Of a stretch of DNA of 64,000 nucleotides, positions 34,057-57,656 are shown one piece after another. Under the pieces are notes generated by a model. The model was not told where the DNA came from, ran no database searches, and saw only the letters and a list, made by a program, of their open reading frames with translations. The position numbers and the translations under genes were made by a program. Position 1 is the first letter of the stretch. Each line of letters begins with the position of its first letter. This DNA comes from Candidatus Gottesmanbacteria bacterium. Lineage in GTDB: Bacteria > Patescibacteriota > Microgenomatia > UBA10105 > UBA927. The stretch spans positions 72,460 to 136,459 of the forward strand of contig JAHFKN010000002.1 in assembly GCA_023245355.1 (NCBI GenBank). The letters run 5' to 3'.

Positions 34057-35163
34057 ATGAATATAAAACTTCTACAGGAGAATTTACAAAAAGCTCTTAC
34101 ACATATTACCAGGGTTGTACCGAGCAAGCCCCAGATTCCCATTCTTCAGAATATTAAGCTTACTGCGACGAAAGAAGGGCTGGAAATTACCGCGACAAAC
34201 ATGGAAACCACCGAAACGATCTGGATAGGCGGAAAGGTTGAGAAGGAAGGGTCTGTCTGTGTCTCAGCGAGAGTTCTTTTTGAGTTCGTTGCAACGCTAC
34301 CGCCTGAAACAGTTCACATTCTGCAAAAAGAAGAACAGCTGATTGTTTCCAGCGCCGGATTTGAAGCACAACTGCCGACCGTGTCCGCTTCGGAGTTCCC
34401 CCCGTCCCCCTCGTTGTCGTTAAAAGACGCAGGAAGCATCGATAAGGAGAAATTTGTTGGTGCGCTTTCTAACGTGTTGTTTGCCGCAGCAACGGACGAA
34501 GGAAGACCGATGTTGACGGGCATTAAGGTCGTTGAAGACGGGGACCAAACCATGTTTGTGGCGACCGACGGATACAGACTTTCTCTCTGCCGCATGGCAA
34601 TGTCAGTAAAATCTCTTTCGCAGGCGATTATTCCCGCCAGGGCCCTCTCTGAAGTGGTGAAGCTGTCTGGTGAAGAAAAGGCGGAAGAGGGGATTAAAAT
34701 AGGGCTCGCTGGGGAGCATCAGGTGGGGTTCGTCGTCGGGGAGACGACGCTGTTAACGCGGCTCCTTGACGGGGAATATCCTAACTTCGAGCGGATTATT
34801 CCGAAAACGTTTACCACCCGGGCGCTGATAGAAAAAGAGGGGTTGCTGCGCGCGGTCAGGTCAGCGGCTATTTTCGCCAGAGACAACGCAAACATAGTCA
34901 GGTTGAGTCTCGACAAGCAAAAAATAGTCGTATCTGCCAACGCCGCCCAGGTCGGAAAAAATTCAATAGAGCTCTCGGCGAAAATCGACGGAGACGGCGG
35001 GGAAATTGCGTTTAACAGCAGATTTCTGTTGGATTTCCTTTCAAATTATCAGGAAGACGAGTTTTTGTTTGAAATGACGGGCTCATTAAACTCGGGGGTT
35101 TTTAAACCGGTAAAGGACGACTCCTACCTTCATATTATAATGCCGGTGCGGGTGACATCATAA
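34057..35163 (+). CDS. dnaN: DNA polymerase III beta subunit (sliding clamp)
   Basis: It has the three-domain beta-clamp architecture and lies immediately downstream of dnaA. Confidence 0.9.
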   Translation: MNIKLLQENLQKALTHITRVVPSKPQIPILQNIKLTATKEGLEITATNMETTETIWIGGKVEKEGSVCVSARVLFEFVATLPPETVHILQKEEQLIVSSAGFEAQLPTVSASEFPPSPSLSLKDAGSIDKEKFVGALSNVLFAAATDEGRPMLTGIKVVEDGDQTMFVATDGYRLSLCRMAMSVKSLSQAIIPARALSEVVKLSGEEKAEEGIKIGLAGEHQVGFVVGETTLLTRLLDGEYPNFERIIPKTFTTRALIEKEGLLRAVRSAAIFARDNANIVRLSLDKQKIVVSANAAQVGKNSIELSAKIDGDGGEIAFNSRFLLDFLSNYQEDEFLFEMTGSLNSGVFKPVKDDSYLHIIMPVRVTS

Positions 35164-35165
35164 CG

Positions 35166-36167
35166 TTATAGCGCGGACACGACCGTTGTTGTTTTGAGTA
35201 CCGCTTTTTCTCCTGGCTCTTCAGCGGTCCCCGTAAACACAAAAATCGGCACGAGAAATTCCTGAACAGGAGAATAGAAATATCCTAAGGTTACCCTTTG
35301 GATGTTTATGGCAGACGGCAATGCGCCGGTCATAAACTCCTTTTCTCCCGTGCTCGTGAGAGAAACGCTTGAAAAAATACCGACATTGGCCTTTAGCCGC
35401 CGCAGCGCCTCACTATAGGAGATAATGGAAACGCTCTGCGCCTCTTTCGTTACATCGGGAAGTATTGTCGCCCGAAGCTCCGTGAGCACATCGTCCCCGT
35501 TAAAACTCGCGGAAAAAACCGGGGTGTCCGCATCGTTTATGAACACCGGCAAGCCCCCGATGACGGCCGAAAAATCCAGCTGAGTAATTACGGCCCCCTG
35601 CGGAGTGGTGAGTTCAGTAGGATGCGGATCGTTAAAAGATAGAAATCGTTGGGCAGATATGGTCGCGGAAAACGGCTGAGGAACGACCGATAAATCCGCA
35701 AGGCCGGATGTGAAGACATCAATATATTTACCGATGTTATTTGTGACAAACCTGTTTGAGCTTACGGTGGTATGGAGGGTGAACGTCAGGGGATTTTCTG
35801 ACAGCGTGCCGGACATATTGTTTGAGGAAAAGTTTGCATAGCGCCCTTTGGACCCGATAATTGTAGAAGGGGGAGTCGTGCTGGTATATAAAGAAAAAAT
35901 ACGGCTCCGTTCAGTTTCGAAATCCCGGACACGCGAAATCTTGTAATACGGAACGCTTGCCGGGAACGACGCGACCGGCGCCCCTGAATACGTAATCGGG
36001 CCACCGGAAAGCGGTTGTGGTAATGAAGACGGGCGGATAGGCGGAGGAGTGATAAATACCCGCTCCTGTATCGGCGGTTGTACGGATGTTTTTGTGCGGG
36101 TGGCCACAAAAAACAAAGCGAGGCTCAAAAAAACAAAGGCTCCGATGATTAACCATGATTTTTTCAT
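35166..36167 (-). CDS. hypothetical exported/membrane-anchored protein (last gene of T4SS operon A)
   Basis: It has an N-terminal TM or signal sequence and a Pro/Ser-rich region. Confidence 0.35.
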   Translation of the reverse strand: MKKSWLIIGAFVFLSLALFFVATRTKTSVQPPIQERVFITPPPIRPSSLPQPLSGGPITYSGAPVASFPASVPYYKISRVRDFETERSRIFSLYTSTTPPSTIIGSKGRYANFSSNNMSGTLSENPLTFTLHTTVSSNRFVTNNIGKYIDVFTSGLADLSVVPQPFSATISAQRFLSFNDPHPTELTTPQGAVITQLDFSAVIGGLPVFINDADTPVFSASFNGDDVLTELRATILPDVTKEAQSVSIISYSEALRRLKANVGIFSSVSLTSTGEKEFMTGALPSAINIQRVTLGYFYSPVQEFLVPIFVFTGTAEEPGEKAVLKTTTVVSAL

Positions 36168-36170
36168 ATA

Positions 36171-38357
36171 TTACGGGCACCCCGCAGGGAGCGGAAACGG
36201 CGTTGTCTGATTCGGTCCTTTGTATCCCCAGTGCAAATGTGTGCCGTATCCCTCTCCGCACTTATTGCCGATGCACCCATAAGTATATCCCGTCGTGTCG
36301 ACGTATCCTATGACGGTGCCGGCGGGAATGAGTACCGGCTTTCCTGAATTAGCCGTAACAAGCGGGGAGACGTCCAGTAAATGCGCGTAGTTAGTACAAT
36401 ATTGTTGATTATTTGACGGGTCTGTGGCCACCAATACAACATTGTTGCCGTAACTACCGTATTTGTACTGATACGGCGCGTAGGTGTTAACGTACGACGC
36501 TACATAGGCATCGTGGGCGGCTACGACCGGCGTACCCTGACTTGCACCGAAGTCATACGCGTTAAGGTTTTTGTGGGATCCGCTCGGGCTAAACGGTCCC
36601 TGAGTGATCGGCGCATGGACGGGGCACGTGCTTATGGATGCCACAGGCGAGGCTCCTGACCATGTACATACAAATGTTGTTGCCTGAATATTCCCGCTTG
36701 TGATGTTTGTAATTGTTTCTTTGTACCGGCGTAACGACGCAAATATCGCGCTGACTTTTGCGCTGTGGGAAAGCTGCGAAACATTAAGCGGGGTAGGGAG
36801 AATAAACAAAAGCAAAAGCGAACCCACAACGATGAGAGCGGTGAGAAGCGGCATGTCTTCTCCGATGGGAATGGGGATGGCCGCCGCCCTGCGGGACCGG
36901 CTCATTTGCTGCGGAATAAACGGGCTTGTCAAAAAGAACGACGTGGTCCTGTCAACGAGTGAGCCGAACGCCCCGCCGATTGCGTTACTCAGCCATCCGA
37001 CTCCAAGCAGAGGGAATCCGACAGCATACGGACGCAAAGAACTACCCTTGCTGTAAACATTTTGTTGTAAACTAAACGTCCTGAATACGTCCCACGGCAT
37101 TATCCCGGAGGGAAGAAACGATCTTCCGGGAGGTGCCGCGGCGTTTGCGCGGGCAAGTTCAAAAAAATCCAACAACCGGTCCTGTGTTCCGTGCGCAAGC
37201 GCCGGGCTTAGCGGACCGCGGAACACAGAAGAAAATACATCATCGAAGATGGTCCGGACTTGTCCTCCCTGAGGCCTTTCTGAAAGCTGGCGGGTTAAAT
37301 CCTGGGCTACGCGGGTAAATAATGAACTATGAACGAAGTTTTCTCCCAACCTGTCAACAAAACGCTGTGTTCCCGATAGCATTGACCGCAAGGTTCCGTT
37401 GACCTTTTCATGAATAATCATTTCGCGCACAGGTTCCCCGACGAGAGACAAAATACCGTCGGCACCCTGTTGCAGGCCTTTAGCCACACCTTTCGCGCCG
37501 GAGGCAGAAAAGAACTGAAGGCTTCCTCCTTTGTGCGACGGATTGCTTTCCAGCGAAGCGGCGACTCCCGCCAGTTTATCTGCCCGGAGGAACGTGTCGG
37601 CAATAGATTCAGATGTGGGCGCGTTTAAAACAACGTCAACAAAAACATCCGGGCGCCTCATGTCCGGTTTTTCGTACAGCGTAGTGGTGAGCGCCTGTGA
37701 CCGTTTTGTTTGGGACACTACCTCCGAAACATACGCATCATTTTCCGTAAGTGAGAGTGCGATATCCTTTTTGAGGATGTTTACCTGATCCGCAGATAAT
37801 CCCGCAGAAGCGATTTCGTTGGACGCGACAAGCATTTCCGCAAATCGCTCCTTGGTCTGTTTTTGCGTTGCTTCTCCCGCGGCGGCAACGAGCGCGCGGT
37901 CGACGGCAGCGCCGAGCGCCTCTTCTGACACCGTCGGTGTGGTAGAGCTGAATTTGTTTACAAGCGTATGAATAAACGTACGCCGCTGGGTTTTTTGGCT
38001 GTTTAATTTGGCCTGCGTGGCCTCTCTGATGCGGACAGCGGCGTGTTTTCTCACCTCTCCTAAATCATGCACTTCCTTTTCCTGTAACACCTGGTCAGGG
38101 AGCTGACTTTGAAAATTAGGCAGCTCGCCTAATTTTTCCGAGGCACGGGATATGATTGACTCAAAAGCAGCAACGAGCTCATTTTCTCCTACGGTTTCCG
38201 CTTGTCCCAGCAATTCCCTCTCAGAAGATATAAGCTCCCGAAGATATGCATACTGGCCTGCGGCGGAAATCGCCTCATAGACGGAGATGCTGCCGGAGGA
38301 AACATCTGACAGCAGGTTGTCGATGAATTCTTTCAGTGGTTGCGTGTCGCTTGCCAT
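36171..38357 (-). CDS. T4SS-associated cell-wall hydrolase with C-terminal M23 (LytM) peptidase domain
   Basis: The C-terminus has GNNVVLVATD...YAHL...GTVIGYVDTTGYTYG...GTHLHWGY, the M23 pattern. There is an internal TM helix. Confidence 0.6.
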   Translation of the reverse strand: MASDTQPLKEFIDNLLSDVSSGSISVYEAISAAGQYAYLRELISSERELLGQAETVGENELVAAFESIISRASEKLGELPNFQSQLPDQVLQEKEVHDLGEVRKHAAVRIREATQAKLNSQKTQRRTFIHTLVNKFSSTTPTVSEEALGAAVDRALVAAAGEATQKQTKERFAEMLVASNEIASAGLSADQVNILKKDIALSLTENDAYVSEVVSQTKRSQALTTTLYEKPDMRRPDVFVDVVLNAPTSESIADTFLRADKLAGVAASLESNPSHKGGSLQFFSASGAKGVAKGLQQGADGILSLVGEPVREMIIHEKVNGTLRSMLSGTQRFVDRLGENFVHSSLFTRVAQDLTRQLSERPQGGQVRTIFDDVFSSVFRGPLSPALAHGTQDRLLDFFELARANAAAPPGRSFLPSGIMPWDVFRTFSLQQNVYSKGSSLRPYAVGFPLLGVGWLSNAIGGAFGSLVDRTTSFFLTSPFIPQQMSRSRRAAAIPIPIGEDMPLLTALIVVGSLLLLFILPTPLNVSQLSHSAKVSAIFASLRRYKETITNITSGNIQATTFVCTWSGASPVASISTCPVHAPITQGPFSPSGSHKNLNAYDFGASQGTPVVAAHDAYVASYVNTYAPYQYKYGSYGNNVVLVATDPSNNQQYCTNYAHLLDVSPLVTANSGKPVLIPAGTVIGYVDTTGYTYGCIGNKCGEGYGTHLHWGYKGPNQTTPFPLPAGCP

Positions 38358-38363
38358 AGTGCG

Positions 38364-40286
38364 TTAGTCGGGTTTATTGCTGTGAACGGTTTCTACGGTA
38401 AATATCGGACGGTTCGGCTTGGGGAGAGGCGGCGCGCTTTGCGGCACAACCGACGCCGCGGGAGCAGGAGTTGTGTTGATAAGTTCCTCCGTGGTTTCCT
38501 GGTGTTCTTTCATCGTCTCCTGTGGCCGTGTTGTTGCCACCTCATGTTCTTCGGGGCTTGCAATAACACGCATTGCCGCGTGAGCTGGTCCTGCGAAAAA
38601 CAACCCTTGTCCGACATCGGCAGCAAGGAGAAGATGCTTTTCTCCTTCAGAGAGGTAAAACACCTGCGCGATGGTGTCTATCGCGGCAGAAGATTGTTTA
38701 AGCAGTATTTGCATACTGCTGTTTTGAATAATCGCTTTTCCCATCTCCGTTGCCATAAAATCTTCCACATCCTGAGTGATGGTGGTAAGTCCGAGGTAAT
38801 ATTTTCTCGCCCGCTTTGCTATTCCGTATAAAAACTGCGCTGAGTCGGGGTATTTCATCATGTACCACGCCTCATCAACAATAAGAAGCCTTCTTCTCTT
38901 GTCGTGTCTGATTTTGTTCCAGATAAAATCCAGAATAAGATACATGGCAATCGGCCGCAGTTCGTCTTCCAAATCCCGGATGGAAAAAACGGTCAGTTGG
39001 TTTCTGATAGACACGTTTGTCTGCTGATCAAAAATACCAACCAGGCTTCCCCTGACAAATTTTTCTATCCGGTCAGCAAGACCCTTTGCTAACACTTCCT
39101 CCATGCCTACAAGCGTTTTATACAAATCTTCCATAAGCGGAGGCTCTTTTTTATGCGTTGTGGGGTCAGGGGTGATTCCTTTTTGTTTGTACGTAAGAAT
39201 AAGCGCGCGGTCCAACAGTGCGTCCTCCGTCGGTGTGAGGCGCCCCATAACAACGCGGAAAAACCCGTGAAGCGACAGTATTTTTTGACTTAACTCACTC
39301 TGACCGTCGCTGGTGGAGCCTAGCAGCGCAAGGTCAAACGGATTAAGTTTTGTTTGGGAGCCGAAGCGGAAGCGGATATATTCTCCTCCGAGCGTATGCG
39401 TCAGGTTTTCATACTCATTTTCCGGATCGATAACGATCACCTCAGTGTCAAACATGAGACTGCGCATGATTTCGAGTTTCACCATGTAGCTTTTTCCGCC
39501 TCCCGATTTTCCGAATACTACGGAATTAGCATTTTCCAGCGTGAATCTGTCAAAGATAATAAGCGAGTCGTTGTGTTCATTGAGTCCGTAAAGAATTCCT
39601 TCGTTTGCAGTAAGCTCGCTGGTTGTAAACGGAAACGTGGTTGCAAGAGACGTCGTGTCCATGTTCCGGGTAACAAGAACCCTGTCCTTGCCCATGGGAA
39701 GGGTTGTCTTTACACCCTCTTCCATTTGGAGAATGGATTTTTTGGTAACGATAAGAAGCGAGCCGAGTGTTGCCTCCACCTGTTTGGTTGTTTTATCAAG
39801 ATCTTCTCTGGTTTTTGCCGGGATTGTGACATAAAGTCCGAATTGGAAAAACCGCTCGGATCCCTTTGCCAGTTCCTGCTGCAACGCAAGCGCGTCTTCA
39901 AGGGCCACTTGTACCGATGGTTCTATAACGCGGCCACGTTTGAGGTCTGATTGTATGGTAGCCTCCATTTCACCGACTTTGCGCTTAAGATTTTCAAGTA
40001 TTTCTTCGCTTCTCGTCGGATATATATACATGGCAATATCCAGCGTGTGATTAAACGAAACGAGAGGTTCTAGCCAGTTTGCCGCAACGAAGCGGGGATA
40101 CCCGGCAACAAAAAGTGAGCGGTAATACCAGTCACCGACTTTTAAAAGGTCAAAATCCACCTCGATTGCGGGAGGTGCGATAATGTCGGTTGCTGTCAGG
40201 GACTGCTGAGACACGGACGAATTTTCCTTGGGAGGCGCAGATGCTCCCATGAATGTGTTAAGTAGCGCGTCGAGTTTCGAGGCCAT
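38364..40286 (-). CDS. VirB4/TrbE/PrgJ-family T4SS ATPase
   Basis: It has Walker A VVFGKSGGGKSY and Walker B LLIVDEAWYMM. Confidence 0.8.
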   Translation of the reverse strand: MASKLDALLNTFMGASAPPKENSSVSQQSLTATDIIAPPAIEVDFDLLKVGDWYYRSLFVAGYPRFVAANWLEPLVSFNHTLDIAMYIYPTRSEEILENLKRKVGEMEATIQSDLKRGRVIEPSVQVALEDALALQQELAKGSERFFQFGLYVTIPAKTREDLDKTTKQVEATLGSLLIVTKKSILQMEEGVKTTLPMGKDRVLVTRNMDTTSLATTFPFTTSELTANEGILYGLNEHNDSLIIFDRFTLENANSVVFGKSGGGKSYMVKLEIMRSLMFDTEVIVIDPENEYENLTHTLGGEYIRFRFGSQTKLNPFDLALLGSTSDGQSELSQKILSLHGFFRVVMGRLTPTEDALLDRALILTYKQKGITPDPTTHKKEPPLMEDLYKTLVGMEEVLAKGLADRIEKFVRGSLVGIFDQQTNVSIRNQLTVFSIRDLEDELRPIAMYLILDFIWNKIRHDKRRRLLIVDEAWYMMKYPDSAQFLYGIAKRARKYYLGLTTITQDVEDFMATEMGKAIIQNSSMQILLKQSSAAIDTIAQVFYLSEGEKHLLLAADVGQGLFFAGPAHAAMRVIASPEEHEVATTRPQETMKEHQETTEELINTTPAPAASVVPQSAPPLPKPNRPIFTVETVHSNKPD

Positions 40287-40945
40287 TATGGTTGTTCCTT
40301 TCCGAAATTGAGCATGGTCACATCCGGCGGCGGGTTTCCCGGGTTATACATGCTGAAAAACAGTTTCACGAGCGAGTCGGAATTTAACTGGGTAGCGTGG
40401 AGACCCACCCTGGCAAGTAAACGCACGAGATGATCGCGTTTCGGGAGCAACACTGTCTGCGCGCGGTCATATATGTATGATTTTTCATACGGCAACCCGG
40501 CTTTTTTGGGTCCGAATAAGAGGGTTGATGATACGCCAAGCTCAACATTGGAAAAGGGGAGAACTATGTAAAATTTCTTGTCCAGTACGTCCTTTTCTTT
40601 TACCATAGACGCGACAAACAGACGGTACCCGTGGATACTGCGCGTCAGCTTCGGATTCTTTTGGCGTTTCTCCTGGTCCTCAAGAAGCTTTAAATATGCG
40701 GATATGTCTTTATGTTTGGTCTGAATGAGAATTTGGATCGGAAACGAAAGCGAGTTGAGAAGTCCCGCATACGCATAAATAATAGCGTCCTGCTCTTTTT
40801 CCGACAGCAAGCCGAAGTTGACCGCTGTCGTTGCTATAACCAGAGCGACGGAGCCGTCCGCGAACATGATAAGATCGCGGTCAACGTCGACTATTTCCGT
40901 AAACACCTGTGTTGATGCGCGTATTGGTACGATAGGTTCTGCCAT
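40286..40945 (-). CDS. hypothetical T4SS-associated protein
   Basis: It is co-operonic, with a TAATG overlap with the virB4-like gene. Confidence 0.35.
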   Translation of the reverse strand: MAEPIVPIRASTQVFTEIVDVDRDLIMFADGSVALVIATTAVNFGLLSEKEQDAIIYAYAGLLNSLSFPIQILIQTKHKDISAYLKLLEDQEKRQKNPKLTRSIHGYRLFVASMVKEKDVLDKKFYIVLPFSNVELGVSSTLLFGPKKAGLPYEKSYIYDRAQTVLLPKRDHLVRLLARVGLHATQLNSDSLVKLFFSMYNPGNPPPDVTMLNFGKEQP

Positions 40946-40950
40946 AATGA

Positions 40951-42222
40951 TTACATTGATGTTTTTCCGAATATTTCCTGCGCGAGTTTTTCCCGTGTCA
41001 ACGCTTTTTCGCTTCGGGCCAGTATTTCCAATACGGGAACAACCGCTCCGTTTAGCGTTATTTGCACCCGCGTAAACGTAAATCTTCCTCTCGGGTCTTC
41101 AATTTCGACAAAATACACACCGCTCATGAGTTGTGTTGATGCAGCGAACTGTCCTAACTTGTTAGTTTTGAGAGCGCGCACAGGTACACCTTCGTGGTTT
41201 GTGACTGTTACCAGTATGCCGGGAAGCAAATTTCCGGCATCGTCTTTGACGAGTCCCGTTATGACGTTCGGCACGTTCGTTAAGCGGGGGAGTCCTACTT
41301 TCACCGCCCCCTCCTGTGTCGTGATGACGTTTACTGTTCCGCGTGTCATTGTCGCATCTTTGGCCGTCTGCGGCGGAGTTTTGGGTGCGACGGTGCGTTT
41401 AAGAGAAATCAGCTCATCTTCTGTTTTGTTTTTTGCTGCCAACACGTCGGTCAGCTGTTTTTGAAGCTCCAGTACGCGGTCTTCTGTAACGGATTTTGTG
41501 GCAAGGCGGGCCTCAAGAGTCATAAGCGTGTCTTCAAGTTGTTTCATTTTTTGCTGCATGGCAATTTCCTGTGCGGTTGTAGTTTGGACAACTGCGGGAG
41601 CTGGTGCTGTCGCCGCCGGGCGGTATCCGGCTACAGCAAGAGAAGGATCCGGAATGACAGGTTTATCAGTTGACTTGGGTGATTTCGGTTGGAAAAAGGC
41701 AAAAAGGTCGTCCATAAACGAGTGATGTGGTTTTGCAACAGTAACGGTTCCCTGTGGTATTGCCTGTTGGGTATTTGATTGGAATAATCCCGAGAGAGCG
41801 CTTTTCGGGGTTACGGACGGAGTAACAGGGGCCGCCTGCGGTGAGGTGGGCGCTACAGCTGCCGGCACAACCGGTTGTGGTGCGGGCTTTGCGGGAGCTG
41901 GTGCCGCCGGAGGAGCTTTAACTGTTTGTGTTTGGGCAGTGTGAGACCAGATATATTGTGTCGGGTTATAAATGCTTTTAAAAAAAGAAAACACCCAAAC
42001 GTCCATCGGTCGTTCCTCAATGGGTATAAAAGCAAATCCGACTCCCAAGAATGCAAACGCACCTGTTAATGGCCATGTGATGATAAACGGGAGCGGCAGT
42101 TTATACGCGATAAACGCGAGGATGGCGCCGCCGCACAGATACCCGAACTGTTTAATCGTCATGTCACCGATTAACCGGAATTGAAATGTGGTGACGTTTT
42201 GAGGTACCGGATGTTGCTCCAT
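40951..42222 (-). CDS. PrgI-like (VirB3-like) membrane protein with long Pro/Ala-rich and coiled-coil extension
   Basis: The N-terminus FQFRLIGDMTIKQFGYLCGGAILAFIAYKLP plus two TM helices resembles the PrgI family. Confidence 0.5.
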   Translation of the reverse strand: MEQHPVPQNVTTFQFRLIGDMTIKQFGYLCGGAILAFIAYKLPLPFIITWPLTGAFAFLGVGFAFIPIEERPMDVWVFSFFKSIYNPTQYIWSHTAQTQTVKAPPAAPAPAKPAPQPVVPAAVAPTSPQAAPVTPSVTPKSALSGLFQSNTQQAIPQGTVTVAKPHHSFMDDLFAFFQPKSPKSTDKPVIPDPSLAVAGYRPAATAPAPAVVQTTTAQEIAMQQKMKQLEDTLMTLEARLATKSVTEDRVLELQKQLTDVLAAKNKTEDELISLKRTVAPKTPPQTAKDATMTRGTVNVITTQEGAVKVGLPRLTNVPNVITGLVKDDAGNLLPGILVTVTNHEGVPVRALKTNKLGQFAASTQLMSGVYFVEIEDPRGRFTFTRVQITLNGAVVPVLEILARSEKALTREKLAQEIFGKTSM

Positions 42223-42281
42223 ACAATAATCATTGTAGAGGTAAAAATTATAGTGTTCAATAGCACAAAGCGCATCAGGAC

Positions 42282-42311
42282 CGTGAAAACTCCACTTTTT
42301 AAGTTTTCACG
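42282..42311. promoter_or_regulatory. perfect 10-bp inverted repeat CGTGAAAACT-N10-AGTTTTCACG in divergent T4SS promoter region
   Basis: It was read directly from the sequence. It lies between the divergently transcribed PrgI-like operon and the virD4-like gene. Confidence 0.4.
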
Positions 42312-42446
42312 AAAGGAATAAATATGTTCGGGAAACTTAGGTCTGTGTATCTTGTGTTGTAAACAAAACAACATGGAGCCCGTACAAGGCGCATTAAAAA
42401 TTACACGCATAAACCTGATGGGTTTTATCTATGATAAGATAGCCTC

Positions 42447-44630
42447 ATGGTCGCATCAGATCTCGTGGTATTAGAAATTCAAAACGCCAGAGAGAGCGAA
42501 GAGTCGCCCCTTGCGATGGAGCAGGTGTTTGCCGCTCTTGGAAGCGGCGGGGGTCATCAGAGTATTCTTTCCCGTTTGTTCAACCCCGGGCACACGCCGC
42601 CTTTTTTCAGTCTTGAGATGGTTTCGGTAAACAGCAGAATACATTTTTTTGTGGCAGTGCCGGAGTCTCTCCGGGGATACCTTGAGAGCCAGCTGACTGC
42701 GCAGTACCCGAGGTTGCTGATTGCAAAGGCACATGATTATGCGGAACACTTTCTTTCGCTTCCTCATGCGGCCGGGCAGCTTGTATACGGGAACAGCTAC
42801 TACCTGCCGATCAAAACATACAAAGACATCAAAGATCTTGATATTCTCTCCGGAGTGGCAGGACAGTTTGCCAAACTGGCGCCGCAGGAGGCGATTGCGC
42901 TGCAGATACGCGTGTCCCCTGCGGGTGGTGCCTGGCAACGGTCGCTTGCGTCTATTATCGCCCGGGGAGTGCCTGACCCGAATTCTACGGTCGGGCGCAC
43001 AAAGCCGCATCCGCATGCGCGGATTATGGAGGTAAAAATGAACCAGGTGGGCTTTTTTGCTTCATTGCGGCTTTTGGCTGTCGCCCCTACAGTCGAGCGT
43101 GCGCAACACATACTGCAGACGACGGCGGGATCCTTCGGGGTATACACCTTGGGAGAAGGGAATAATCTGGCGTTATCCGTTCCTCAGTTTTGGCAGAAGA
43201 AAAAATTTGAACATACGCTTCTTGTCCGTGGAGATTACGCCAGGCCGCAATTCCAGGTGATGGGGGCGTCGGAATTATCATCGCTATGGCATCCTCCGGG
43301 CATCGGGCTTTCCATGATCAAAAATATTCATTGGGGAGCGCATTTATTGGGTGAGGCACCGGCAAATTTGCCCATTTCGGTAGAAGACGCGGAAGAGAAG
43401 CGCCGTATCAACTTTTTTGCCCGGACGGAGTACAAAAATACGCCCACGATTTTCGGTATCAAAAAAGATGACCGTAGGAAACATGTCTACATCATCGGAA
43501 AAACCGGCACGGGAAAATCAACGCTGATTGCCAACATGGCGATAAATGATATGAAAAACGGGGAGGGTATGGCGGTCATTGATCCGCACGGGGATTTAAG
43601 TGAAATCATGCTGGATTACGTACCGTCACACCGGACAAATGATGTGGCATATCTGGATCCTGCGGACATGGATCACCCGTTTCACTTAAACCCTCTGGAG
43701 GTAAAAAATCCGGCCTACCGCGAGCTGGTCGCTTCCGGCATCGTGTCAATATTTTATAAACTGTATCACATGAGCTGGGGGCCCAGACTGGAGTATATTT
43801 TGCGGAATACGATCCTTACGCTTACACACGTTCCGCAGTCGACGTTTCTGGATATTCCTGAAATTCTTACAAACGATAAATACCGCGAAAAGATTGTCGA
43901 CAAGCTGGATGATCGGGTACTTAAAAATTTCTGGCTGAATGAATTTAATCGGTTGAGTCCGCAAATGCGGAGCGAATCCATTTCCCCGATTCTGAATAAG
44001 GTGGGTCAGTTTCTTTCGTCCAAGACAATCAGGAATATCGTAGGTCACCCTGTGTCTACCGTTGATTTGGAGAACATGATGAACGAGGGAAAAATCGTAA
44101 TCGTGAATCTTTCGCAGGGGAAGCTGGGAGAAGACAGCAGTGCGCTTTTGGGCGCCATGATTATTACGAAAATGCAGCTGGCCGCGATGAACCGGGTATA
44201 CACGGCAGAGGAGAGCCGCCGGGATTTTTACCTCTATGTTGATGAATTTCAAAATTTTGCAACCCAGTCGTTTATCAAAATACTTTCGGAAGCGCGTAAA
44301 TATAGGCTTAATTTAACGCTCGCAAATCAATATATCGGCCAGATCGATGAAGACGTGCAAAAAGCGATTTTCGGGAACGCGGGATCAATCGTTTCATTTG
44401 CGGTCGGCGCGGCTGACGCCCGCTTGCTTACCCGCGAATTCGGGGAGAAATACGAGGAATCGGAGCTTGTTGCACTCGGGAATTTCCAGATCGTTCTGAA
44501 GCTTTCCATTGATAATCAGACATCCACGCCGTTTTCTGCCATGACATTGCCGCTCCCCAGAAGTAAAAATGAGCACAGGGAAACGGTCATCCGCGTGTCT
44601 CGCGAACGGTATACAAAAAAGGTACAATAA
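42447..44630 (+). CDS. VirD4/TraG/TraD-family type IV coupling protein ATPase
   Basis: It has Walker A IIGKTGTGKST and Walker B YLYVDEFQNF. There is an unusual roughly 330-aa N-terminal domain with no obvious TM anchor. Confidence 0.7.
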   Translation: MVASDLVVLEIQNARESEESPLAMEQVFAALGSGGGHQSILSRLFNPGHTPPFFSLEMVSVNSRIHFFVAVPESLRGYLESQLTAQYPRLLIAKAHDYAEHFLSLPHAAGQLVYGNSYYLPIKTYKDIKDLDILSGVAGQFAKLAPQEAIALQIRVSPAGGAWQRSLASIIARGVPDPNSTVGRTKPHPHARIMEVKMNQVGFFASLRLLAVAPTVERAQHILQTTAGSFGVYTLGEGNNLALSVPQFWQKKKFEHTLLVRGDYARPQFQVMGASELSSLWHPPGIGLSMIKNIHWGAHLLGEAPANLPISVEDAEEKRRINFFARTEYKNTPTIFGIKKDDRRKHVYIIGKTGTGKSTLIANMAINDMKNGEGMAVIDPHGDLSEIMLDYVPSHRTNDVAYLDPADMDHPFHLNPLEVKNPAYRELVASGIVSIFYKLYHMSWGPRLEYILRNTILTLTHVPQSTFLDIPEILTNDKYREKIVDKLDDRVLKNFWLNEFNRLSPQMRSESISPILNKVGQFLSSKTIRNIVGHPVSTVDLENMMNEGKIVIVNLSQGKLGEDSSALLGAMIITKMQLAAMNRVYTAEESRRDFYLYVDEFQNFATQSFIKILSEARKYRLNLTLANQYIGQIDEDVQKAIFGNAGSIVSFAVGAADARLLTREFGEKYEESELVALGNFQIVLKLSIDNQTSTPFSAMTLPLPRSKNEHRETVIRVSRERYTKKVQ

Positions 44631-44637
44631 CTCCCGT

Positions 44638-45192
44638 ATGAATATCGGGCTGTTAGGCGGCGCATTCAATCCGCCCCACTTGGGACATCTCATGATTGCC
44701 CAGCAGGTGCTGGATTTTACCGACACGGACGAAGTGTGGTTTTTGCCCAATTACGGACAGATCCCCCCGAAGCCGGTGGCTGACGTTTCCCATCGCCTGG
44801 CCATGACAAATCTACTCACGCTTCCTCATACCCGGGTTTCTACGCTGGAAATAGACAATAAACTGGACGGGGACACGATTCATTTGCTCCCGCTTCTTCC
44901 AAAGGAGCATGTGTTCCGGTTTATTATCGGCTCGGATCAGTTGCCGACGCTTCATCTGTGGGGCTCCTGGCAGAAGTTGCTTTCTGAGCTTCCGTTTCTT
45001 GTGTTTCCGCGGTACGGATACCCGAATGAACCGCTGTATCCTAATATGACAGTCATCGGTCACGAACTTCTTGTCGGAACGAATATTTCGTCTACCAAGA
45101 TCCGGAAACGGGTGAAAAACGGTCTGCCGGTCGAGCAATTTGTTCCTCCTCTGGTTGCTTCCTATATCCGAAAGAACGGTTTATACCGATAA
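44638..45192 (+). CDS. nadD: nicotinate-nucleotide adenylyltransferase
   Basis: MNIGLLGGAFNPPHLGHL carries the (H/T)xGH nucleotidyltransferase motif. Confidence 0.8.
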   Translation: MNIGLLGGAFNPPHLGHLMIAQQVLDFTDTDEVWFLPNYGQIPPKPVADVSHRLAMTNLLTLPHTRVSTLEIDNKLDGDTIHLLPLLPKEHVFRFIIGSDQLPTLHLWGSWQKLLSELPFLVFPRYGYPNEPLYPNMTVIGHELLVGTNISSTKIRKRVKNGLPVEQFVPPLVASYIRKNGLYR

Positions 45193-45268
45193 ACTCCCTT
45201 GTTCTTATGATGGGGACACGTTAGAATTAAGTTGAGCGCTGTTTATAGCGCGTCATTTCAATGCGTTT

Positions 45269-48200
45269 ATGGCAAACGAAGAATTATTCAAGCGGTTAAG
45301 TGAAGCGGCAAAAAAAGCTGCAGAAAGCGGCGGACAACCGCAGCCTCCGGAAGTGCCTCTACCCCCCGAAGTGCCGCTTCCCCCGGAGAAGCCGGAAGTG
45401 AAGGATACCGGAAAGCAGAAAGAGGTCAAGGAAGTAAGCCGCGAGCGCATAGCAAATCTTGCAGCAAAACTCGCAGAGTCTCAGTCAGAGGTGACCAAAA
45501 GGATTGTCGGCGAGAGTGGGGAGTTTCCCAAGGACGAGCGCGTGTTCGGCGTTATCGAAGCGCTTATCACGGCTGATGAAGCACAGTTGTCCGATTCCGC
45601 ATTTGTACGGGGTATAGGTGAGCAGTTGGTTGCACTCGCCAGGGAATCAGGACCCACAAGCGCTACGGCATTAGAGGCGCGGTCATATCTTGGAAAAATT
45701 GTTGCGGAACATCCTGAATTGGCACAGCTGCAGTTAGAAGCAATGCCGGCGATTTCCGGCGGCAGCGGGGCTCCTGAAGATGTGCCGGCTGATGATTCCG
45801 GCGATATAAACGGAGTCAAAGATCCTGAGTTGACCGGTGAGGTACAACATTTGTTTGATGAAGCGGCAGATGCGGATTTGAAAGACACGCCGCTGGCCGG
45901 TGACTTGCAGGAGCTTCAGTATCGTTTCCGTGTGGATCCGGGGGCCGCGTATGACAACCGGCTTACCGACGATGCCGTGCGGCGCATGGTAGAAAAGGGC
46001 CGGCGTGAAGGAGTTGATGAAAAGTTGGTGCAAAAAGCAGTTGAACGCGTCCGGTATTTTGAGCGATTTACGGATCTTCGGATGCAAAAACATCAGGAAA
46101 AACTCCGCGGCGGCAGAGTTGTGACATGGGGAGAAATCAGGGGGTCATCGCCGAATCCTGATTTGCATGCTGCTGACGAAGTGTTTTCCGATTTTAGAAA
46201 TATGCCTCCGGCAGATGTTGAATTGCTTATTCAGGGAGATGAGGGAGAGGCAAAATGGTATTTCGACTTTATCGATCAGATATATTCCATGGGACGGGAA
46301 GAAACGCGCCCGACGCTTACCCAGGATCAGCGCTTCCAGGAATTTAAGGATTATCTTGTATGGAAATACGGCGGGGAATATCATCTTGCCGTTCAGCTAT
46401 ATCAAAAACACTGGGACAGCAGAGGTCAGTACGAGTATGCCGTAAAAGGGCTCATGTACAACCCGGGAGACGTGAAAGACAGGCTGAAGGCGATGTCACT
46501 TCTTCAGGGAGCCGACTTGGATCACCTGTATAAAAATTTTGACCATTCAAACGAAGCGTACAGCTTATATGAACACGTGCTGTTTGAGCTTATGGCGACC
46601 AAGCGCGCAAAGTACGGCGAGGCCATAAAGTACATGCAGGAAGAAATTTCCTGGAACGGCAAGCACATGAAACGGGAAGACGTGTTAAAGGAACTCCGGG
46701 TGAAGCAGCGGCAGGAAGGGTTCGATCCTGCAACCGGCAAGAAAACCGAGAGTCCGCTTTCCATAGAGGATCAGCGGCTCATGCACGAGATTCAACAGCA
46801 GAATGATTTGGCGGCCGAAGGCGTTATGTTGTGGGACGATGACGTTCAAAGTTACACGGAGCTCCACATTACTCTTTCAAAGCTGCGTAATAATCGCGAA
46901 GAGTTGTTGAAGAAAAAAAGCCAGGGAACGGCGCTTACCGAAAAAGAAAATGAGCAGCTTGCTGAAGTTGACAGGTTATACCAGATTTATTCTCACAGAG
47001 AAGAGATGCTCAATGAAAATTTTACGCAGGAATTGTTGGAAACCCGCGGACTTTCCCCTGTGGATATAGAAGTACGCAAGCGGCTTGTCGAATACCTGCA
47101 GGCTCAGCATCCGGAGGATCCCAATTATAAGCCCGCAGAGTATGAAGTCCGTATGGCACTGTGGGCATCGCGTACCGCAATGATAGGGAGCGGGCGTATG
47201 GCAATGATCGGTGCTATGATGTCTATTCCTCCGGCGGTCGAATACGGGACAGCATCAGGGAAACATGTTATGCGCGCACCCGCATTTGAGGATATCCAGC
47301 GGATATTTAATCCGGAAACGTTTGCTACCCGGTTTAATATCGGAGGCGATATGGGTATCACCGCGCGGAGCATATTCCGTAAGAATCTGCTTAACACCAA
47401 AGGGATCAATCCTAAAGAGCCGGGGTGGTTTAAGAAAATCGGCGGAGCCGTCGAAAAGCTCGGAGACAAGTTCAAGATTACTCATTCCAAAGAATGGCAT
47501 GATGCGAAGCATCACGAGCACGATAAGCAGCGTCAGGCTTCTATGGAAGCGTGGGAGTTTGCGGAAGATGCCACCGGTATTTCATTCAGCGAGCTGCTGG
47601 GGCCCGGATTTATGGCGAGCGGAGGATTTTATGACGGCACCGCATGGCGGCTGGAAAAAGGTATTGCGGACGAGCTGCGCGGAAAACTGCTAAGCATGAA
47701 GAAGTTGCCGGAAAATGCTGCGCTGTTGGATAACCAGGCACTTTCAATCCAGCTGCTTACAGCAGGAAACGCCGCCGAGCGTAAACCCATTCTCGACCGG
47801 ATGCTTAGGCGCAATCCGTCAAAATTCCTTGAACTCTTAGAGGAAGATACCGAGCGGATATTAACCAAAAATAACATCACGCATGAAGAGTGGAAGAAAT
47901 TTAAAGAAGCGCTGTCGCTTGCTGAATTGAAGATGGCACACGAGAAGGAATGGCAATTTGCCCGTGTGGATCTGGCAGAAAAGAAAGATTTCGATGCACT
48001 CATTGCTCCGTATCTTGCGATATTAAAGCTTGACCCCGCGCGGTCAGAGAATTTGCGGCAGGTTCTGGTTGATATGCAGGCTGAGATATACCGCGGCCGC
48101 ACGGTAGAAGCCTCAGGTGGCACATTCCGTAACAAAATGGACGCCATTGCAGCATTGAAGTTGCCGTTAACCATGAGCATGACTGATTTTGACTGGAAAG

Positions 48201-48904
48201 AGTCGAATTTCTATCAGCTCGGAACCGTCGCAATGCACCGAAGAATCCGTGATGTAGGTGCGCAAATGCGCGCGCGCGACGGTATGCTCGGATTTTTCTC
48301 GAACGAAGAAATGGTGTTATCGCCGAATGACTATACCAAATCGCTTCAGAAAATGATGGAGGTCAGGACTGCGATAGTGGATTACTCGGGACCGGATGCG
48401 GCTGAAGCTACCGTAAAAGAAATGATGCGGGTGTTTTTCGAAATGAACCGGCACCGGAATTTGAATACGATCGGCTGGATACCGGGATTGACCCGCGGGC
48501 TTATGTATTTGGCCGAAGTAGATCTTAGGCCGCTTAAAAACAATAAGCTGCTTCAATTAGTGTTCGGAAAGGAACGCTGGCAGGAACTCGCGAAAGAAAA
48601 AATCAGCCACTGGCCGCATTCGGTGGGAGAGGCGATATCCTACTCTTCACGCTACACAGGAGCGCATGCAAATGCATGGGACGAAGCAAAAATGGAGGAA
48701 ATCCTCGTGTCCGCTCAGGACATGGGATTATTCATAAACCACCCGGAATTTATTCTGGATCTTCGGAATGAGTTTAAAACCGGGCTTCCGTATCGTCTGA
48801 CGGCGTTATACCGGAAGTATTGGTGGGTAGTGCTGGCAGCGACGCTGGCCATCGCAATTGAAAAGTCTACCAAGGAACAGGAAGGTGGAGGAGCGCACCA
48901 CTAG
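45269..48904 (+). CDS. large (1211 aa) mostly alpha-helical hypothetical protein with N-terminal PPEVPLP repeats and C-terminal TM anchor
   Basis: It is one long ORF, with a repeat at 45344-45400 and a hydrophobic tail WWVVLAATLAIAI. It is flanked by T4SS genes. Confidence 0.5.
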   Translation: MANEELFKRLSEAAKKAAESGGQPQPPEVPLPPEVPLPPEKPEVKDTGKQKEVKEVSRERIANLAAKLAESQSEVTKRIVGESGEFPKDERVFGVIEALITADEAQLSDSAFVRGIGEQLVALARESGPTSATALEARSYLGKIVAEHPELAQLQLEAMPAISGGSGAPEDVPADDSGDINGVKDPELTGEVQHLFDEAADADLKDTPLAGDLQELQYRFRVDPGAAYDNRLTDDAVRRMVEKGRREGVDEKLVQKAVERVRYFERFTDLRMQKHQEKLRGGRVVTWGEIRGSSPNPDLHAADEVFSDFRNMPPADVELLIQGDEGEAKWYFDFIDQIYSMGREETRPTLTQDQRFQEFKDYLVWKYGGEYHLAVQLYQKHWDSRGQYEYAVKGLMYNPGDVKDRLKAMSLLQGADLDHLYKNFDHSNEAYSLYEHVLFELMATKRAKYGEAIKYMQEEISWNGKHMKREDVLKELRVKQRQEGFDPATGKKTESPLSIEDQRLMHEIQQQNDLAAEGVMLWDDDVQSYTELHITLSKLRNNREELLKKKSQGTALTEKENEQLAEVDRLYQIYSHREEMLNENFTQELLETRGLSPVDIEVRKRLVEYLQAQHPEDPNYKPAEYEVRMALWASRTAMIGSGRMAMIGAMMSIPPAVEYGTASGKHVMRAPAFEDIQRIFNPETFATRFNIGGDMGITARSIFRKNLLNTKGINPKEPGWFKKIGGAVEKLGDKFKITHSKEWHDAKHHEHDKQRQASMEAWEFAEDATGISFSELLGPGFMASGGFYDGTAWRLEKGIADELRGKLLSMKKLPENAALLDNQALSIQLLTAGNAAERKPILDRMLRRNPSKFLELLEEDTERILTKNNITHEEWKKFKEALSLAELKMAHEKEWQFARVDLAEKKDFDALIAPYLAILKLDPARSENLRQVLVDMQAEIYRGRTVEASGGTFRNKMDAIAALKLPLTMSMTDFDWKESNFYQLGTVAMHRRIRDVGAQMRARDGMLGFFSNEEMVLSPNDYTKSLQKMMEVRTAIVDYSGPDAAEATVKEMMRVFFEMNRHRNLNTIGWIPGLTRGLMYLAEVDLRPLKNNKLLQLVFGKERWQELAKEKISHWPHSVGEAISYSSRYTGAHANAWDEAKMEEILVSAQDMGLFINHPEFILDLRNEFKTGLPYRLTALYRKYWWVVLAATLAIAIEKSTKEQEGGGAHH
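45344..45400 (+). repeat. imperfect 18-nt tandem repeat encoding PPEVPL PPEVPL PPEKPEV
   Basis: It was read directly from the sequence. Confidence 0.5.
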
Positions 48905-48947
48905 AGACTAAGGATAAGGAAAAGACAGAGGAAAAAGAAAGACGTCT

Positions 48948-50543
48948 TTAGTGTCCGCCGCCGCCGGTAATTGATCCGAGGCCCTTTTCAGCTCCCTCAC
49001 GCGCAACCTGCATAGATGATTTTGCCTCAGGTTTATGGCGGAACGCGCTGGCTATAAAGCTCGCCTGATATCCTAAGTTAAACAGCGTTCCGACTCCGGA
49101 TCCTAATGGCCCGACAATCGGGCCGACGCCTCCCGGAACTAACGGCTCAGCTTTGAGGGATTTTTGCAGTCCCTGGATGATCGTCGGGATAACCATGAGC
49201 ATGCCGAGTCCGATCAGTCCGGCCATGCCATACGTTCCTTCTCCGGTAGAAAGCAGCGGCGGTGCCCATATTTTGGTTGAAACATCCTGCGAGGTGAGAA
49301 CGGCCGTCACAAGCAGCAGAAGCACGGTGATAGGGAATACAAGGATTTTGGATAATAAATTTTTAAACCACGAGCTGAATGCGTTCGTTCCCGGAATGGC
49401 CTCCATCATCAGTTGAAACGGAGCGGTAAGGAGCGAAATGATAATGTTTATATACGCATCCAGAAGCATGAAGATGAGCCGGATCACGCCAAACAGCAGG
49501 ATAATCAGAAATATGACGGCCAGCAGCACCGGCCCCGTGGTTAATCCGAGCAGGGCTCCCCGCAGACCGAACATATAGCCGATGACGCCCGGGACGACTG
49601 TCCATCCGGCAATTTTCCAGGGATCATTCTGTGTAATCATGGCTCCGATATCATCGTACGCCTGGAATCCGCTGGCAAAGAAGAACCGCAGGAGTCCGCT
49701 GACGCCTCCGTTTAAGAGCAGTTTCGTCGCGTTTTCTACGGGAGCTGTCGTAGACGGGGGAGTAAAGCTTGGCGGCAAGGCGTCGATATTGAGTGTGGTC
49801 GCAAGACTTAATAATTTACCTAAGTTCCCTCCCGACGCACTGTCCACTGCTGATGCCGAAAGGACAATCGCAAGATACATAAGATCAATCATGGCGCCGA
49901 CGATGGCATAGGAAAATGTTACCAGCACCAATGCAATGACAATCCGCGGGATGGCGTTCTGAACGGTGACTACTGTTTTGGGATCGATTTTTTTCCGGAA
50001 CATCACCATAAATCCGACAACGATGATAATGATGGCCAGCAGGGCGTAGGCGATGTTACGGAAGACTTTCCATAGCGGCAGCATACTGGCCAGTCCGGAA
50101 AATCCTATTCCCTGTGCTTCTGCTTTTTTGGGCATAAATCCCAAGGTTCTGCCTACATCCGCGATGTACTCAGTACTCCGCGCAGGCGGATTCCGGTACA
50201 TGGCAAGCGTGCTTCTGGCAAGACCTGCCATGGCGCTTTTTTGATAGCTTAGTCCGATCGGGCATCCCGGTGAGGCGGCATCGCACAACCCGCGGAAACC
50301 GATAATGAGCTGACCCTGGCTCATGGTTGCGGTTCCGACGTCTCCTGCCTGCTTGTTGAGCGCACCTTCCGATGCCTTCATAAGTCCCGCCACAACACAG
50401 TTCATGTCCAGATACCACGTCGCATCATCACACTCTGCTCCCGGCACTGCCGGAGGATCAGCGGCCATAACACGGGAAGGGACCGCTAAGGCTGCAGTCA
50501 AAAGTAAGAGAAATGCGCTGATAAACAAAACTACGCGACGCAT
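48948..50543 (-). CDS. VirB6/TrbL-like polytopic T4SS membrane protein
   Basis: A signal peptide is followed by a Cys-containing extracytoplasmic domain and 6 or more TM helices. It lies directly downstream of the pilin genes. Confidence 0.5.
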   Translation of the reverse strand: MRRVVLFISAFLLLLTAALAVPSRVMAADPPAVPGAECDDATWYLDMNCVVAGLMKASEGALNKQAGDVGTATMSQGQLIIGFRGLCDAASPGCPIGLSYQKSAMAGLARSTLAMYRNPPARSTEYIADVGRTLGFMPKKAEAQGIGFSGLASMLPLWKVFRNIAYALLAIIIIVVGFMVMFRKKIDPKTVVTVQNAIPRIVIALVLVTFSYAIVGAMIDLMYLAIVLSASAVDSASGGNLGKLLSLATTLNIDALPPSFTPPSTTAPVENATKLLLNGGVSGLLRFFFASGFQAYDDIGAMITQNDPWKIAGWTVVPGVIGYMFGLRGALLGLTTGPVLLAVIFLIILLFGVIRLIFMLLDAYINIIISLLTAPFQLMMEAIPGTNAFSSWFKNLLSKILVFPITVLLLLVTAVLTSQDVSTKIWAPPLLSTGEGTYGMAGLIGLGMLMVIPTIIQGLQKSLKAEPLVPGGVGPIVGPLGSGVGTLFNLGYQASFIASAFRHKPEAKSSMQVAREGAEKGLGSITGGGGH

Positions 50544-50579
50544 ACGTTCATTATCCCGATGAAATCAATCAAAGTCAAT

Positions 50580-50900: not shown

Positions 50901-50971
50901 ATACGGATATTATTACGTACTCCGGTAGGCTGTGACAAGAGCCCCCTTATGCTGCACGAAAGTTTTTCGGG

Positions 50972-51301: not shown

Positions 51302-51334
51302 AATCAATCCTTTCGTCAAATCAATACAACCTTT

Positions 51335-51363
51335 ATTATACCTTACTTACCATTCTTGCGCAA
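51335..51363 (-). promoter_or_regulatory. sigma70-like promoter TTGCGC-17-TATAAT upstream of pilin paralog 2
   Basis: The hexamers were read on the minus strand. They lie about 30 nt upstream of the ATG at 51301. Confidence 0.4.
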
Positions 51364-51384
51364 GAAAACGGGATTTGTCAACAC

Positions 51385-51726: not shown

Positions 51727-51732
51727 AACAGA

Positions 51733-52101: not shown

Positions 52102-52105
52102 ACAA

Positions 52106-52441: not shown

Positions 52442-52454
52442 AATGATGCCGGCT

Positions 52455-55473: not shown

Positions 55474-55474
55474 T

Positions 55475-57654: not shown

Positions 57655-57656
57655 AT

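Follow-up and report, generated by a model that had tools for sequence, protein, structure and literature searches.

The question raised by the stretch of DNA analysed here, a window of 64,000 nucleotides from a Candidatus Gottesmanbacteria contig, is whether the T4SS (type IV secretion system) encoded beside its replication origin is a mobile conjugative element or a resident system of the cell, and what such a system would be used for. The reading favoured here, with a probability of about 0.8, is that the locus is a chromosomal, vertically inherited T4SS of the Patescibacteria, derived from the monoderm MPF-FATA machinery and most likely exporting proteins host-ward, not conjugating. An original prediction, made from the sequence, had already proposed a chromosomal and possibly non-conjugative T4SS instead of an integrative and conjugative element (ICE); synteny, the lack of mobility genes and att-like repeats, and a host-like composition agree with it.

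The T4SS genes were confirmed as open reading frames (ORFs) at the positions first given. They form three units: operon A on the minus strand, the divergent operon B on the plus strand and a pilin/VirB6 unit on the minus strand. The right end had been placed at 50543, which omits the pilin array (50580-52808); once the array is counted the T4SS runs to 52808.

Chromosomal setting and inheritance

The position of the locus next to dnaA and dnaN, near oriC, was borne out. The cumulative GC skew of the window has its minimum at 32-34 kb, where both genes lie. The window has four exact DnaA boxes, and three of these are on the flanks of dnaA. The T4SS locus adjoins oriC, 1-20 kb to its right. The right replichore has a positive GC skew, so the minus-strand T4SS units (35166-42222 and 48948-52808) are transcribed head-on to replication.

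The decisive evidence on inheritance is synteny across related loci. The comparison covered the closest virB4-bearing loci, the best 80 among 185,579 species genomes, with an identity to the window VirB4 of 56-91%. Where a specific taxon name is given, nearly all are metagenome-assembled genomes (MAGs) of Gottesman-, Woese-, Curtiss-, Beckwith-, Davies-, Levy- or Shapirobacteria or of the 'Patescibacteria group'; others are unclassified MAGs or carry no specific taxon name. The order prgI-trsD-virB4 is kept in 79-80 of the 80 loci, from several Microgenomatia candidate phyla, and in 57-58 of them dnaN-dnaA comes after virB4, on its other side. A Gottesmanbacteria-like clade of 30-32 loci also has the two operon B genes nadD and virD4-like. 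Because of this synteny the T4SS is, as judged from sequence, a vertically inherited chromosomal system and not an ICE. As a separate observation, dnaN is visible in 58 related loci, and in 57 of these it and the virB4 operon are convergent.

The content of the window points the same way. As originally claimed, no relaxase, integrase or transposase domain was identified with Pfam in any window ORF of at least 150 aa. The tRNA and Rfam scans of the window were empty, and the direct-repeat search for attachment sites gave no att-like flanking repeats, just short intragenic repeats and the paralogy of the pilins. GC and codon usage are host-like: the T4SS genes have a GC of 0.502 and a third-position GC (GC3) of 0.539, against 0.484 and 0.508 in the other window genes, and the relative synonymous codon usage of the two sets correlates at 0.87 (split-half control, 0.95). 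An ICE or ICE remnant landed beside oriC, with relaxase and integrase outside the window, could be argued from VirB4, whose family was defined on CTn2, a conjugative transposon, and from the presence of an ATPase resembling type IV coupling proteins (T4CPs). The conserved order beside dnaN-dnaA in several candidate phyla largely refutes this explanation; the length of the window free of mobility genes, tRNA genes and att-like repeats, the host-like composition and the rarity of relaxases in Patescibacteria (109 in 3,035 genomes) also stand against it, and it is considered highly improbable.

Components of the secretion apparatus

Operon A (42222 to 35166) comprises five genes with gaps or overlaps of 1-6 nt (Table 1). 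The PrgI-like, VirB4 and M23 calls made originally, like that of nadD in operon B, were upheld by profile matches; that of PrgI is just under the cut-off, but the domain was matched in 45 of 45 family members. In the PrgI/VirB3-like protein, two transmembrane (TM) segments (within residues 27-68) are accompanied by a linker rich in Pro and Ala, a stretch resembling a coiled coil and, at the C-terminus, a CarboxypepD_reg beta-sandwich that was matched in 42 of the 45 members. Its gene was detected in 79 of the 80 loci.

The second gene had been left as hypothetical and is TrsD-like: in addition to the NCBIfam matches of the window protein, the family scan matched TrsD in 34 of 37 members (best 6.5e-12) and the N-terminal part of VirB4 in all 37. 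It lies directly upstream of virB4 in the 80 loci, and in the window its stop overlaps the virB4 start. VirB4 itself matches NCBIfam NF045971 with an E-value of 1e-117 and 394 bits (cut-off 325) over model positions 173-730, without the first ~170 positions of this CD1110 family model, and Pfam P-loop_TraG with 6e-25. In the mycoplasma-ICE VirB4 model, the TrsD-like protein covers positions 128-234 and the window VirB4 positions 272-875. Since the two proteins match complementary parts of one VirB4 model, and VirB4 covers only 173-730 of CD1110, together the two genes look like a split virB4. The hhalign comparison of the TrsD-like family with the window VirB4 family gave no similarity, and the link between TrsD and the VirB4 N-part comes from the NCBIfam models alone.

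The fourth gene of the operon encodes the cell-wall hydrolase, formed by a cytoplasmic N-region of ~500 aa, a single TM segment at 502-520 and, outside the membrane, an M23 metallopeptidase domain at 599-713; the family profile matches M23 enzymes of the PDB with an E-value of 2e-20. The N-terminal ~500 residues contain no known domain. The protein occupies the position of a VirB1/PrgK-type hydrolase, much as first proposed (there PrgK/TcpG-type). The last gene encodes the exported protein of the original prediction, with a signal-anchor (5-23), a linker rich in Pro and ~270 aa forming an extracytoplasmic domain, and with no Pfam, NCBIfam or PDB profile match. It is fast-evolving (found in 9 loci at ~28% identity), and a VirB8/TcpC-like role is a guess from its position. 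Genes for the outer-membrane core (VirB7/9/10) were not detected.

The pilin/VirB6 unit (52808 to 48948) comprises six pilin genes and, directly downstream, the VirB6-like gene. The array pilins match Pfam PF18895 with E-values from 1.9e-10 to 1.8e-4 and an NCBIfam mycoplasma-ICE pilin-like family with 3.5e-7; each shows an N-terminal leader and two hydrophobic helices in the TM scan, and their pairwise identity is 22-57% (mean 34%). In the promoter scan, the VirB6-like gene and pilin genes 1 and 2 each have a promoter-like site upstream. An orphan seventh pilin-like gene is located 10 kb from the array, past the mevalonate genes; its product has a longer, Cys-containing N-region and is 29-34% identical to the array pilins. 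Divergent from the first pilin gene, and overlapping its ORF, is a gene for an extracytoplasmic function (ECF) type sigma factor (Sigma70_r2 and r4_2; 52720-53373, plus strand). It is possible that this factor regulates the array.

The VirB6-like protein starts with a signal peptide and an external N-region of ~140 aa; 5-6 TM segments, with a ~120-aa loop, follow, and the C-terminal tail has GGGGH as its last residues. The position of its gene downstream of the pilins stands as originally described, and the protein is polytopic. The AlphaFold2 (AF2) model has a pLDDT of 68.5 (TM core >80), and in a Foldseek search of 350,542 PDB chains the top matches were TrwI/VirB6 of R388 (7O3V, 8RT9, 8RTD), at ranks 1-3, 5-8 and 15 among the 50 listed. 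The model thus makes VirB6-like the best, though weakly supported, reading of this 531-aa protein, and its family a reasonable candidate for the VirB6 called scarce in Microgenomatia.

Table 1. Features of the T4SS locus and of the adjoining origin region, in window positions.
Feature	Coordinates	Strand	Basis or remark
dnaA	32508-33872		At GC-skew minimum
dnaN	34057-35163		At GC-skew minimum
Exported protein, 333 aa, last operon A gene	35166-36167	-	N-terminal signal-anchor by TM scan
M23 cell-wall hydrolase, 728 aa	36171-38357	-	Pfam M23, 34.2 bits (cut-off 28.7)
VirB4 ATPase, 640 aa, MPF-FATA/CTn2 (CD1110) type	38364-40286	-	NCBIfam NF045971, Pfam P-loop_TraG
TrsD-like protein, 219 aa	40286-40945	-	NCBIfam TrsD, 2.6e-4; mycoplasma-ICE VirB4 model, 7e-6
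PrgI/VirB3-like membrane protein, 423 aa	40951-42222	-	Pfam PrgI, E 1.3e-5, just under Pfam cut-off
Conserved operon A control region	42232-42311	-	Palindrome, invariant block, promoter-like site
Soluble T4CP (VirD4)-superfamily ATPase, 727 aa	42447-44630	+	Pfam TrwB_AAD_bind, TraG-D_C, DUF87
nadD (nicotinate-nucleotide adenylyltransferase)	44638-45192	+	TIGR00482, 126.5 bits (cut-off 112)
Giant orphan protein, 1211 aa	45269-48904	+	Convergent with VirB6-like gene; synteny, tail motif
VirB6-like polytopic membrane protein, 531 aa	48948-50543	-	TM scan, AF2, Foldseek
VirB2-like pilin genes, six	50580-50900, 50972-51319, 51385-51726, 51733-52101, 52106-52441, 52455-52808	-	Pfam PF18895
Orphan seventh T4SS-pilin-like gene, 177 aa	62708-63241	-	PF18895, 3.2e-6, 27.5 bits (cut-off 26.6)

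Operon B, the shared tail and the control region

The first gene of operon B encodes a T4CP-like ATPase and is divergent from the prgI-like gene in 32 loci. It passes Pfam TrwB_AAD_bind (32.7 bits, cut-off 20.5) and TraG-D_C (25.2, cut-off 22). The ATPase domain (~322-670) contains the Walker A motif GKTGTGKS (351-358), an all-helical insertion (~422-546) and the Walker B residues DE (599-600), both motifs being invariant. Against curated NCBIfam families it reaches 41 bits in conju_CD1115 (VirD4-like, 9e-11; cut-off 250) and 41 in SXT_TraD (cut-off 366), far below both, and there is also a weak match to CedD (6.6e-9), far below the family cut-off. The original prediction of a VirD4-like ATPase lacking a TM anchor and carrying an N-domain of roughly 330 aa is sustained, as no hydrophobic segment was identified (Kyte-Doolittle threshold 1.6, 19 residues). 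The N-domain is, however, not novel: it corresponds to Pfam PF26449.1, precomputed in every close homologue, a family with more than 4,000 members. PF26449 is presumably the family named DUF8128; the name is unconfirmed, and a literature search gave no paper. In the AF2 model (pLDDT 73) an alpha/beta N-domain is followed by the ATPase core with its helical insertion. The first Foldseek match is full-length TrwK/VirB4 (6e-12, ~850 columns), followed by DotL, HerA, TrwB and Cag-beta (1e-8 to 1e-6). As hhalign connected this N-domain neither with that of VirB4 nor with TrsD, the two-domain resemblance to VirB4 rests on one Foldseek alignment.

The second gene, nadD, is a true NadD equivalog and is syntenic in 30 loci; as most homologues have 184 aa, its start is likely 44638, 7 nt past the stop of the ATPase gene. 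The third encodes a giant protein without signal peptide and without Pfam, NCBIfam or PDB profile match; a Pfam scan of 38 homologues gave no consistent family, and only 101 cluster representatives were identified among 1.84 billion proteins. The tail anchor first described is reflected in a conserved hydrophobic segment, RKYWWV, though a short one (~14 aa), followed by an acidic/basic patch and an oligo-Gly-His end. Unlike the housekeeping nadD, this protein behaves as a locus-specific component. The picture of a T4SS wrapped around housekeeping genes therefore stands for nadD and not for its neighbour. The conserved virD4-like/nadD/giant-protein operon of the Gottesmanbacteria is possibly a detail beyond the literature, as may be the VirB6 candidate, the shared tail and the palindrome ahead of the prgI-like gene described below. 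In other Microgenomatia (loci L040, L052, L053, L058, L079 and L007/L022/L032) the slot convergent with the VirB6-like gene also holds a very large protein, of 943-1474 aa. These proteins, those of L040, L058 and L079 among them, have no detectable homology to the 1211-aa protein of the window; the ones of L007/L022/L032 keep a hydrophobic tail and a Gly-rich, His-containing end.

The giant protein ends in EGGGAHH (48862-48904, plus strand) and its convergent neighbour, the VirB6-like protein, in ITGGGGH (48948-48990, minus strand). An oligo-Gly-His tail of this kind was identified in 2 of the 362 window ORFs, exactly these two. The related loci, with 4,497 ORFs in all, gave 16 hits, of which 15 are from the giant or VirB6-like families. 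Among database homologues it is present in 61 of 120 VirB6-like and 28 of 40 giant proteins; in distant homologues of the latter the strict motif is rare and most have a His within the last three residues. An inverted repeat or bidirectional terminator between the convergent genes was considered as the source of the shared tail and rejected, since the two genes encode it with different codons and the DNA has no inverted repeat. These patterns suggest that the tail ties the giant protein to the T4SS. That this protein is an undescribed component or substrate of the system, functionally tied through the tail to the VirB6-like channel, is put forward as quite unlikely.

The tail can be read in two ways. 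Both proteins may carry it as a tag by which they dock on the soluble T4CP-like ATPase, or the tails might dock or regulate the M23 hydrolase of the system at the secretion site. The second is conceivable because M23 enzymes of the lysostaphin type classically act on oligo-glycine, and a His at the very end could serve as a zinc ligand. Where an M23 hydrolase was detected, 7 of 15 loci have the VirB6-like tail, and where none was, 1 of 15, a comparison confounded by phylogeny and not counted as evidence. The acidic patch and short hydrophobic segment of the giant protein would also fit a translocated, membrane-inserting effector.

Between operons A and B, upstream of the prgI-like gene, lies a perfect 10+10 palindrome, CGTGAAAACT-N10-AGTTTTCACG (42282-42311), followed by an invariant block. 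A promoter-like site, TTGAAC-17-TACAAT (42260-42232, promoter scan), ends 9 nt before the prgI-like ATG, so that operon A may have a nearly leaderless mRNA. About 60 nt of this region are invariant across 8 loci. The palindrome occurs once in the window (0 expected) and once per locus, with an exact match in 17 loci, and is 5' of the prgI-like gene wherever coordinates were compared. The block is kept across loci whose PrgI proteins are 50-76% identical and is more conserved than the flanking coding sequence. Palindrome and invariant promoter region lie between the divergent operons and are conserved above the flanking genes, which suggests a shared regulator of both. An insertion of ~100 nt (about 42320-42420) is present in the window and absent from relatives.

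To the left of oriC, 32 kb (631-32409) are almost wholly a surface-glycan gene cluster, with many GT2/GT4 glycosyltransferases, two Wzy_C/O-antigen-ligase-like proteins, an ABC-2 exporter, a DegT aminotransferase, WecG/TagA, a carbamoyltransferase and methyltransferases. To the right, after the ECF sigma factor gene, comes the mevalonate pathway (54307-62342): HMG-CoA reductase, an HMG-CoA-synthase-like protein, thiolase, two GHMP kinases, diphosphomevalonate decarboxylase and undecaprenyl-diphosphate synthase, a near-complete route in a genome of the Candidate Phyla Radiation. Within it, a low-GC patch (57956-60694; GC 0.40-0.45, GC3 0.31-0.38 against ~0.51 elsewhere) contains a GHMP kinase, a methyltransferase and the second GHMP kinase, and may be a recent replacement by horizontal transfer.

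Relation to known systems and proposed function

The system is known for the phylum, and the inferences of the original prediction are all already published for Patescibacteria. The T4SS of Southlakia (SEML1_0006-0019) resembles Gram-positive conjugative systems and is essential for epibiotic growth, but its pilins are essential and neither a coupling protein nor a relaxase could be recognised (Wang et al. 2023, PMC10633639); the essentiality of T4SS genes and pilins is also reported in PMC12857230, a 2025 T4SS review that restates the Patescibacteria points. In a survey of 3,035 genomes most VirB4 grouped in a clade of Patescibacteria that is itself nested within MPF-FATA (Quinonero-Coronel et al. 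2025, PMC12102498). TrsD, the most abundant component, PrgI and VirB2 arrays were found near virB4, the arrays with 2-11 genes, especially in Microgenomatia and Saccharimonadia, and with a mean identity of ~25% (maximum 54%). Relaxases were rare, and dnaA and dnaN were among the commonest neighbours in Microgenomatia and Paceibacteria. Only 148 of 5,713 Patescibacteria T4CP homologues were near virB4, and VirB6 homologues were scarce in Microgenomatia, 'suggesting extreme sequence divergence' (PMC12102498).

The window system shares with these Patescibacteria systems the chromosomal location close to dnaA/dnaN, relaxase-free within the window, the VirB4 with adjacent TrsD-like and PrgI/VirB3-like genes, the peptidase-type wall hydrolase downstream of virB4, and the VirB6-like protein with an array of six divergent VirB2-like pilins. 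It differs in the T4CP-like ATPase encoded within the locus and divergent from the prgI-like gene, which is rare overall and absent from the Southlakia cluster, in the embedded nadD and 1211-aa orphan, and in the CarboxypepD_reg domain of the PrgI-like protein. The VirB6-like protein is undetectable by sequence profiles, matching the scarcity of VirB6 in Microgenomatia. In the survey 22.6% of Microgenomatia VirB3 homologues were associated with virB4 (PMC12102498), whereas the prgI-like gene adjoins it in 79 of the 80 loci compared here; its divergence and its fusion to CarboxypepD_reg are probably why the survey missed it.

Compared with the MPF-FATA conjugative systems of monoderms (CTn2 of C. 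difficile, pGO1, pCF10, pIP501 and the mycoplasma ICEs), the likeness lies in a VirB4 that passes the CD1110 cut-off, TrsD (pGO1 type), PrgI (pCF10 type), a dedicated wall hydrolase, no VirB7/9/10 and pilins that weakly match the mycoplasma-ICE pilin-like family. In contrast, the window system is chromosomal and vertically inherited, without relaxase, oriT or integrase, has a VirB2-like pilin array that typical Gram-positive systems lack, a hydrolase with M23 only and not SLT plus CHAP, and a soluble T4CP-like protein with a PF26449 N-domain. That ATPase has in common with T4CPs (TrwB of R388, VirD4, DotL, Cag-beta) and with VirB4 (TrwK) the Walker A/B core with an all-alpha insertion, but it has no N-terminal TM domain and carries a soluble N-domain of 330 aa. 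The VirB6-like protein resembles VirB6/TrwI of R388 as a polytopic inner-membrane protein with at least 5 TM helices and a large external loop, encoded beside pilin genes; it is twice as long, with a cleavable-looking signal peptide, the external N-region and the Gly-His tail.

From these parts, the most likely use of the system would be to export proteins on contact, onto or into a host cell, through a channel that bears a pilus; conjugation is not likely. This use, delivery of proteins to a host cell or its manipulation, is favoured because the window has no relaxase and the pilin array is diversified, and it follows the homologous Southlakia system. The PrgI/VirB3-like and VirB6-like proteins would form the platform and channel in the single membrane. 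VirB4 with the TrsD-like protein would dock on it and power the extraction of pilins and their polymerisation into a VirB2-type pilus; the M23 domain, put outside by a single TM segment, would open the peptidoglycan for the apparatus, and the soluble T4CP-like ATPase would feed substrates to the channel.

Several points weigh against this interpretation. The function is wholly a matter of inference; sequence data do not separate export, import and adhesion, and the role of the Patescibacteria T4SS is called unknown in reviews, the hypotheses of the field being that it delivers effectors or imports DNA or nucleotides (PMC11665869). At the locus no substrate or effector and no VirB8 homologue were identified, and relaxases could be encoded beyond the 64 kb. 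The VirB6-like protein and 43 homologues gave no VirB6, TrbL or PrgH match and no consistent family in Pfam/NCBIfam, nor a PDB profile match, which leaves the VirB6 claim without a sequence family; its structural matches to TrwI/VirB6 are weak (E-values of 0.02-0.2 and TM-scores of 0.2-0.4, with probability up to 1.0). The T4CP-like ATPase is without membrane anchor and far below the curated VirD4 cut-offs, and the t4cp homologue of Southlakia lies elsewhere and is not essential (PMC12102498).

The last points lead to the rather doubtful explanation that the T4SS consists of the prgI-trsD-virB4-M23 operon and the pilin/VirB6 unit only, a pilus or adhesion organelle without coupling protein, with the virD4-like operon as an unrelated neighbour carrying an exapted ATPase. 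Outside the Gottesmanbacteria-like clade the virD4-like gene is indeed absent from the virB4 neighbourhood, in line with the few T4CP homologues near virB4 in the survey and with the dispensable one of Southlakia, and within the clade a housekeeping nadD shares the operon of the anchorless ATPase. Against this, the divergent arrangement with its highly conserved common control region is kept in 30-32 loci, and the giant and VirB6-like proteins have in common the rare oligo-Gly-His tail. A machine working inwards, importing DNA or nucleotides like ComB of H. pylori or the archaeal Ced system and feeding nucleotides that the reduced genome cannot make, is also unlikely. It has been raised in the literature since competence is dispensable in Southlakia and the T4SS essential (PMC11665869), and it agrees with weak matches to archaeal DNA-import proteins, of VirB4 to CedB (1.3e-13) and of the T4CP-like ATPase to CedD, and with a T4CP domain match to the 'DNA-binding' all-alpha domain. 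The Ced matches are, however, far below the family cut-offs and reflect the common ATPase fold, the locus has no DNA-processing or ComEC-like gene, and a diversified array of six pilins fits surface or host recognition better than uptake.

The locus is real but ordinary for Patescibacteria, and its modest interest comes from accessories specific to the lineage. Among T4SSs, that of the Patescibacteria was the first found to be indispensable to the cell that bears it, and it is the only monoderm type with VirB2-like pilins. The Gottesmanbacteria version adds no new principle, but it offers a fuller parts list than the Saccharibacteria model: a T4CP-like ATPase within the locus, a VirB6 candidate, a PrgI-like/beta-sandwich fusion, a lineage-specific giant protein with the tail of the VirB6 candidate, and a conserved operator-like palindrome. 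These added parts are handles for the prediction of complex structures and for finding the regulator and the substrates of the system.

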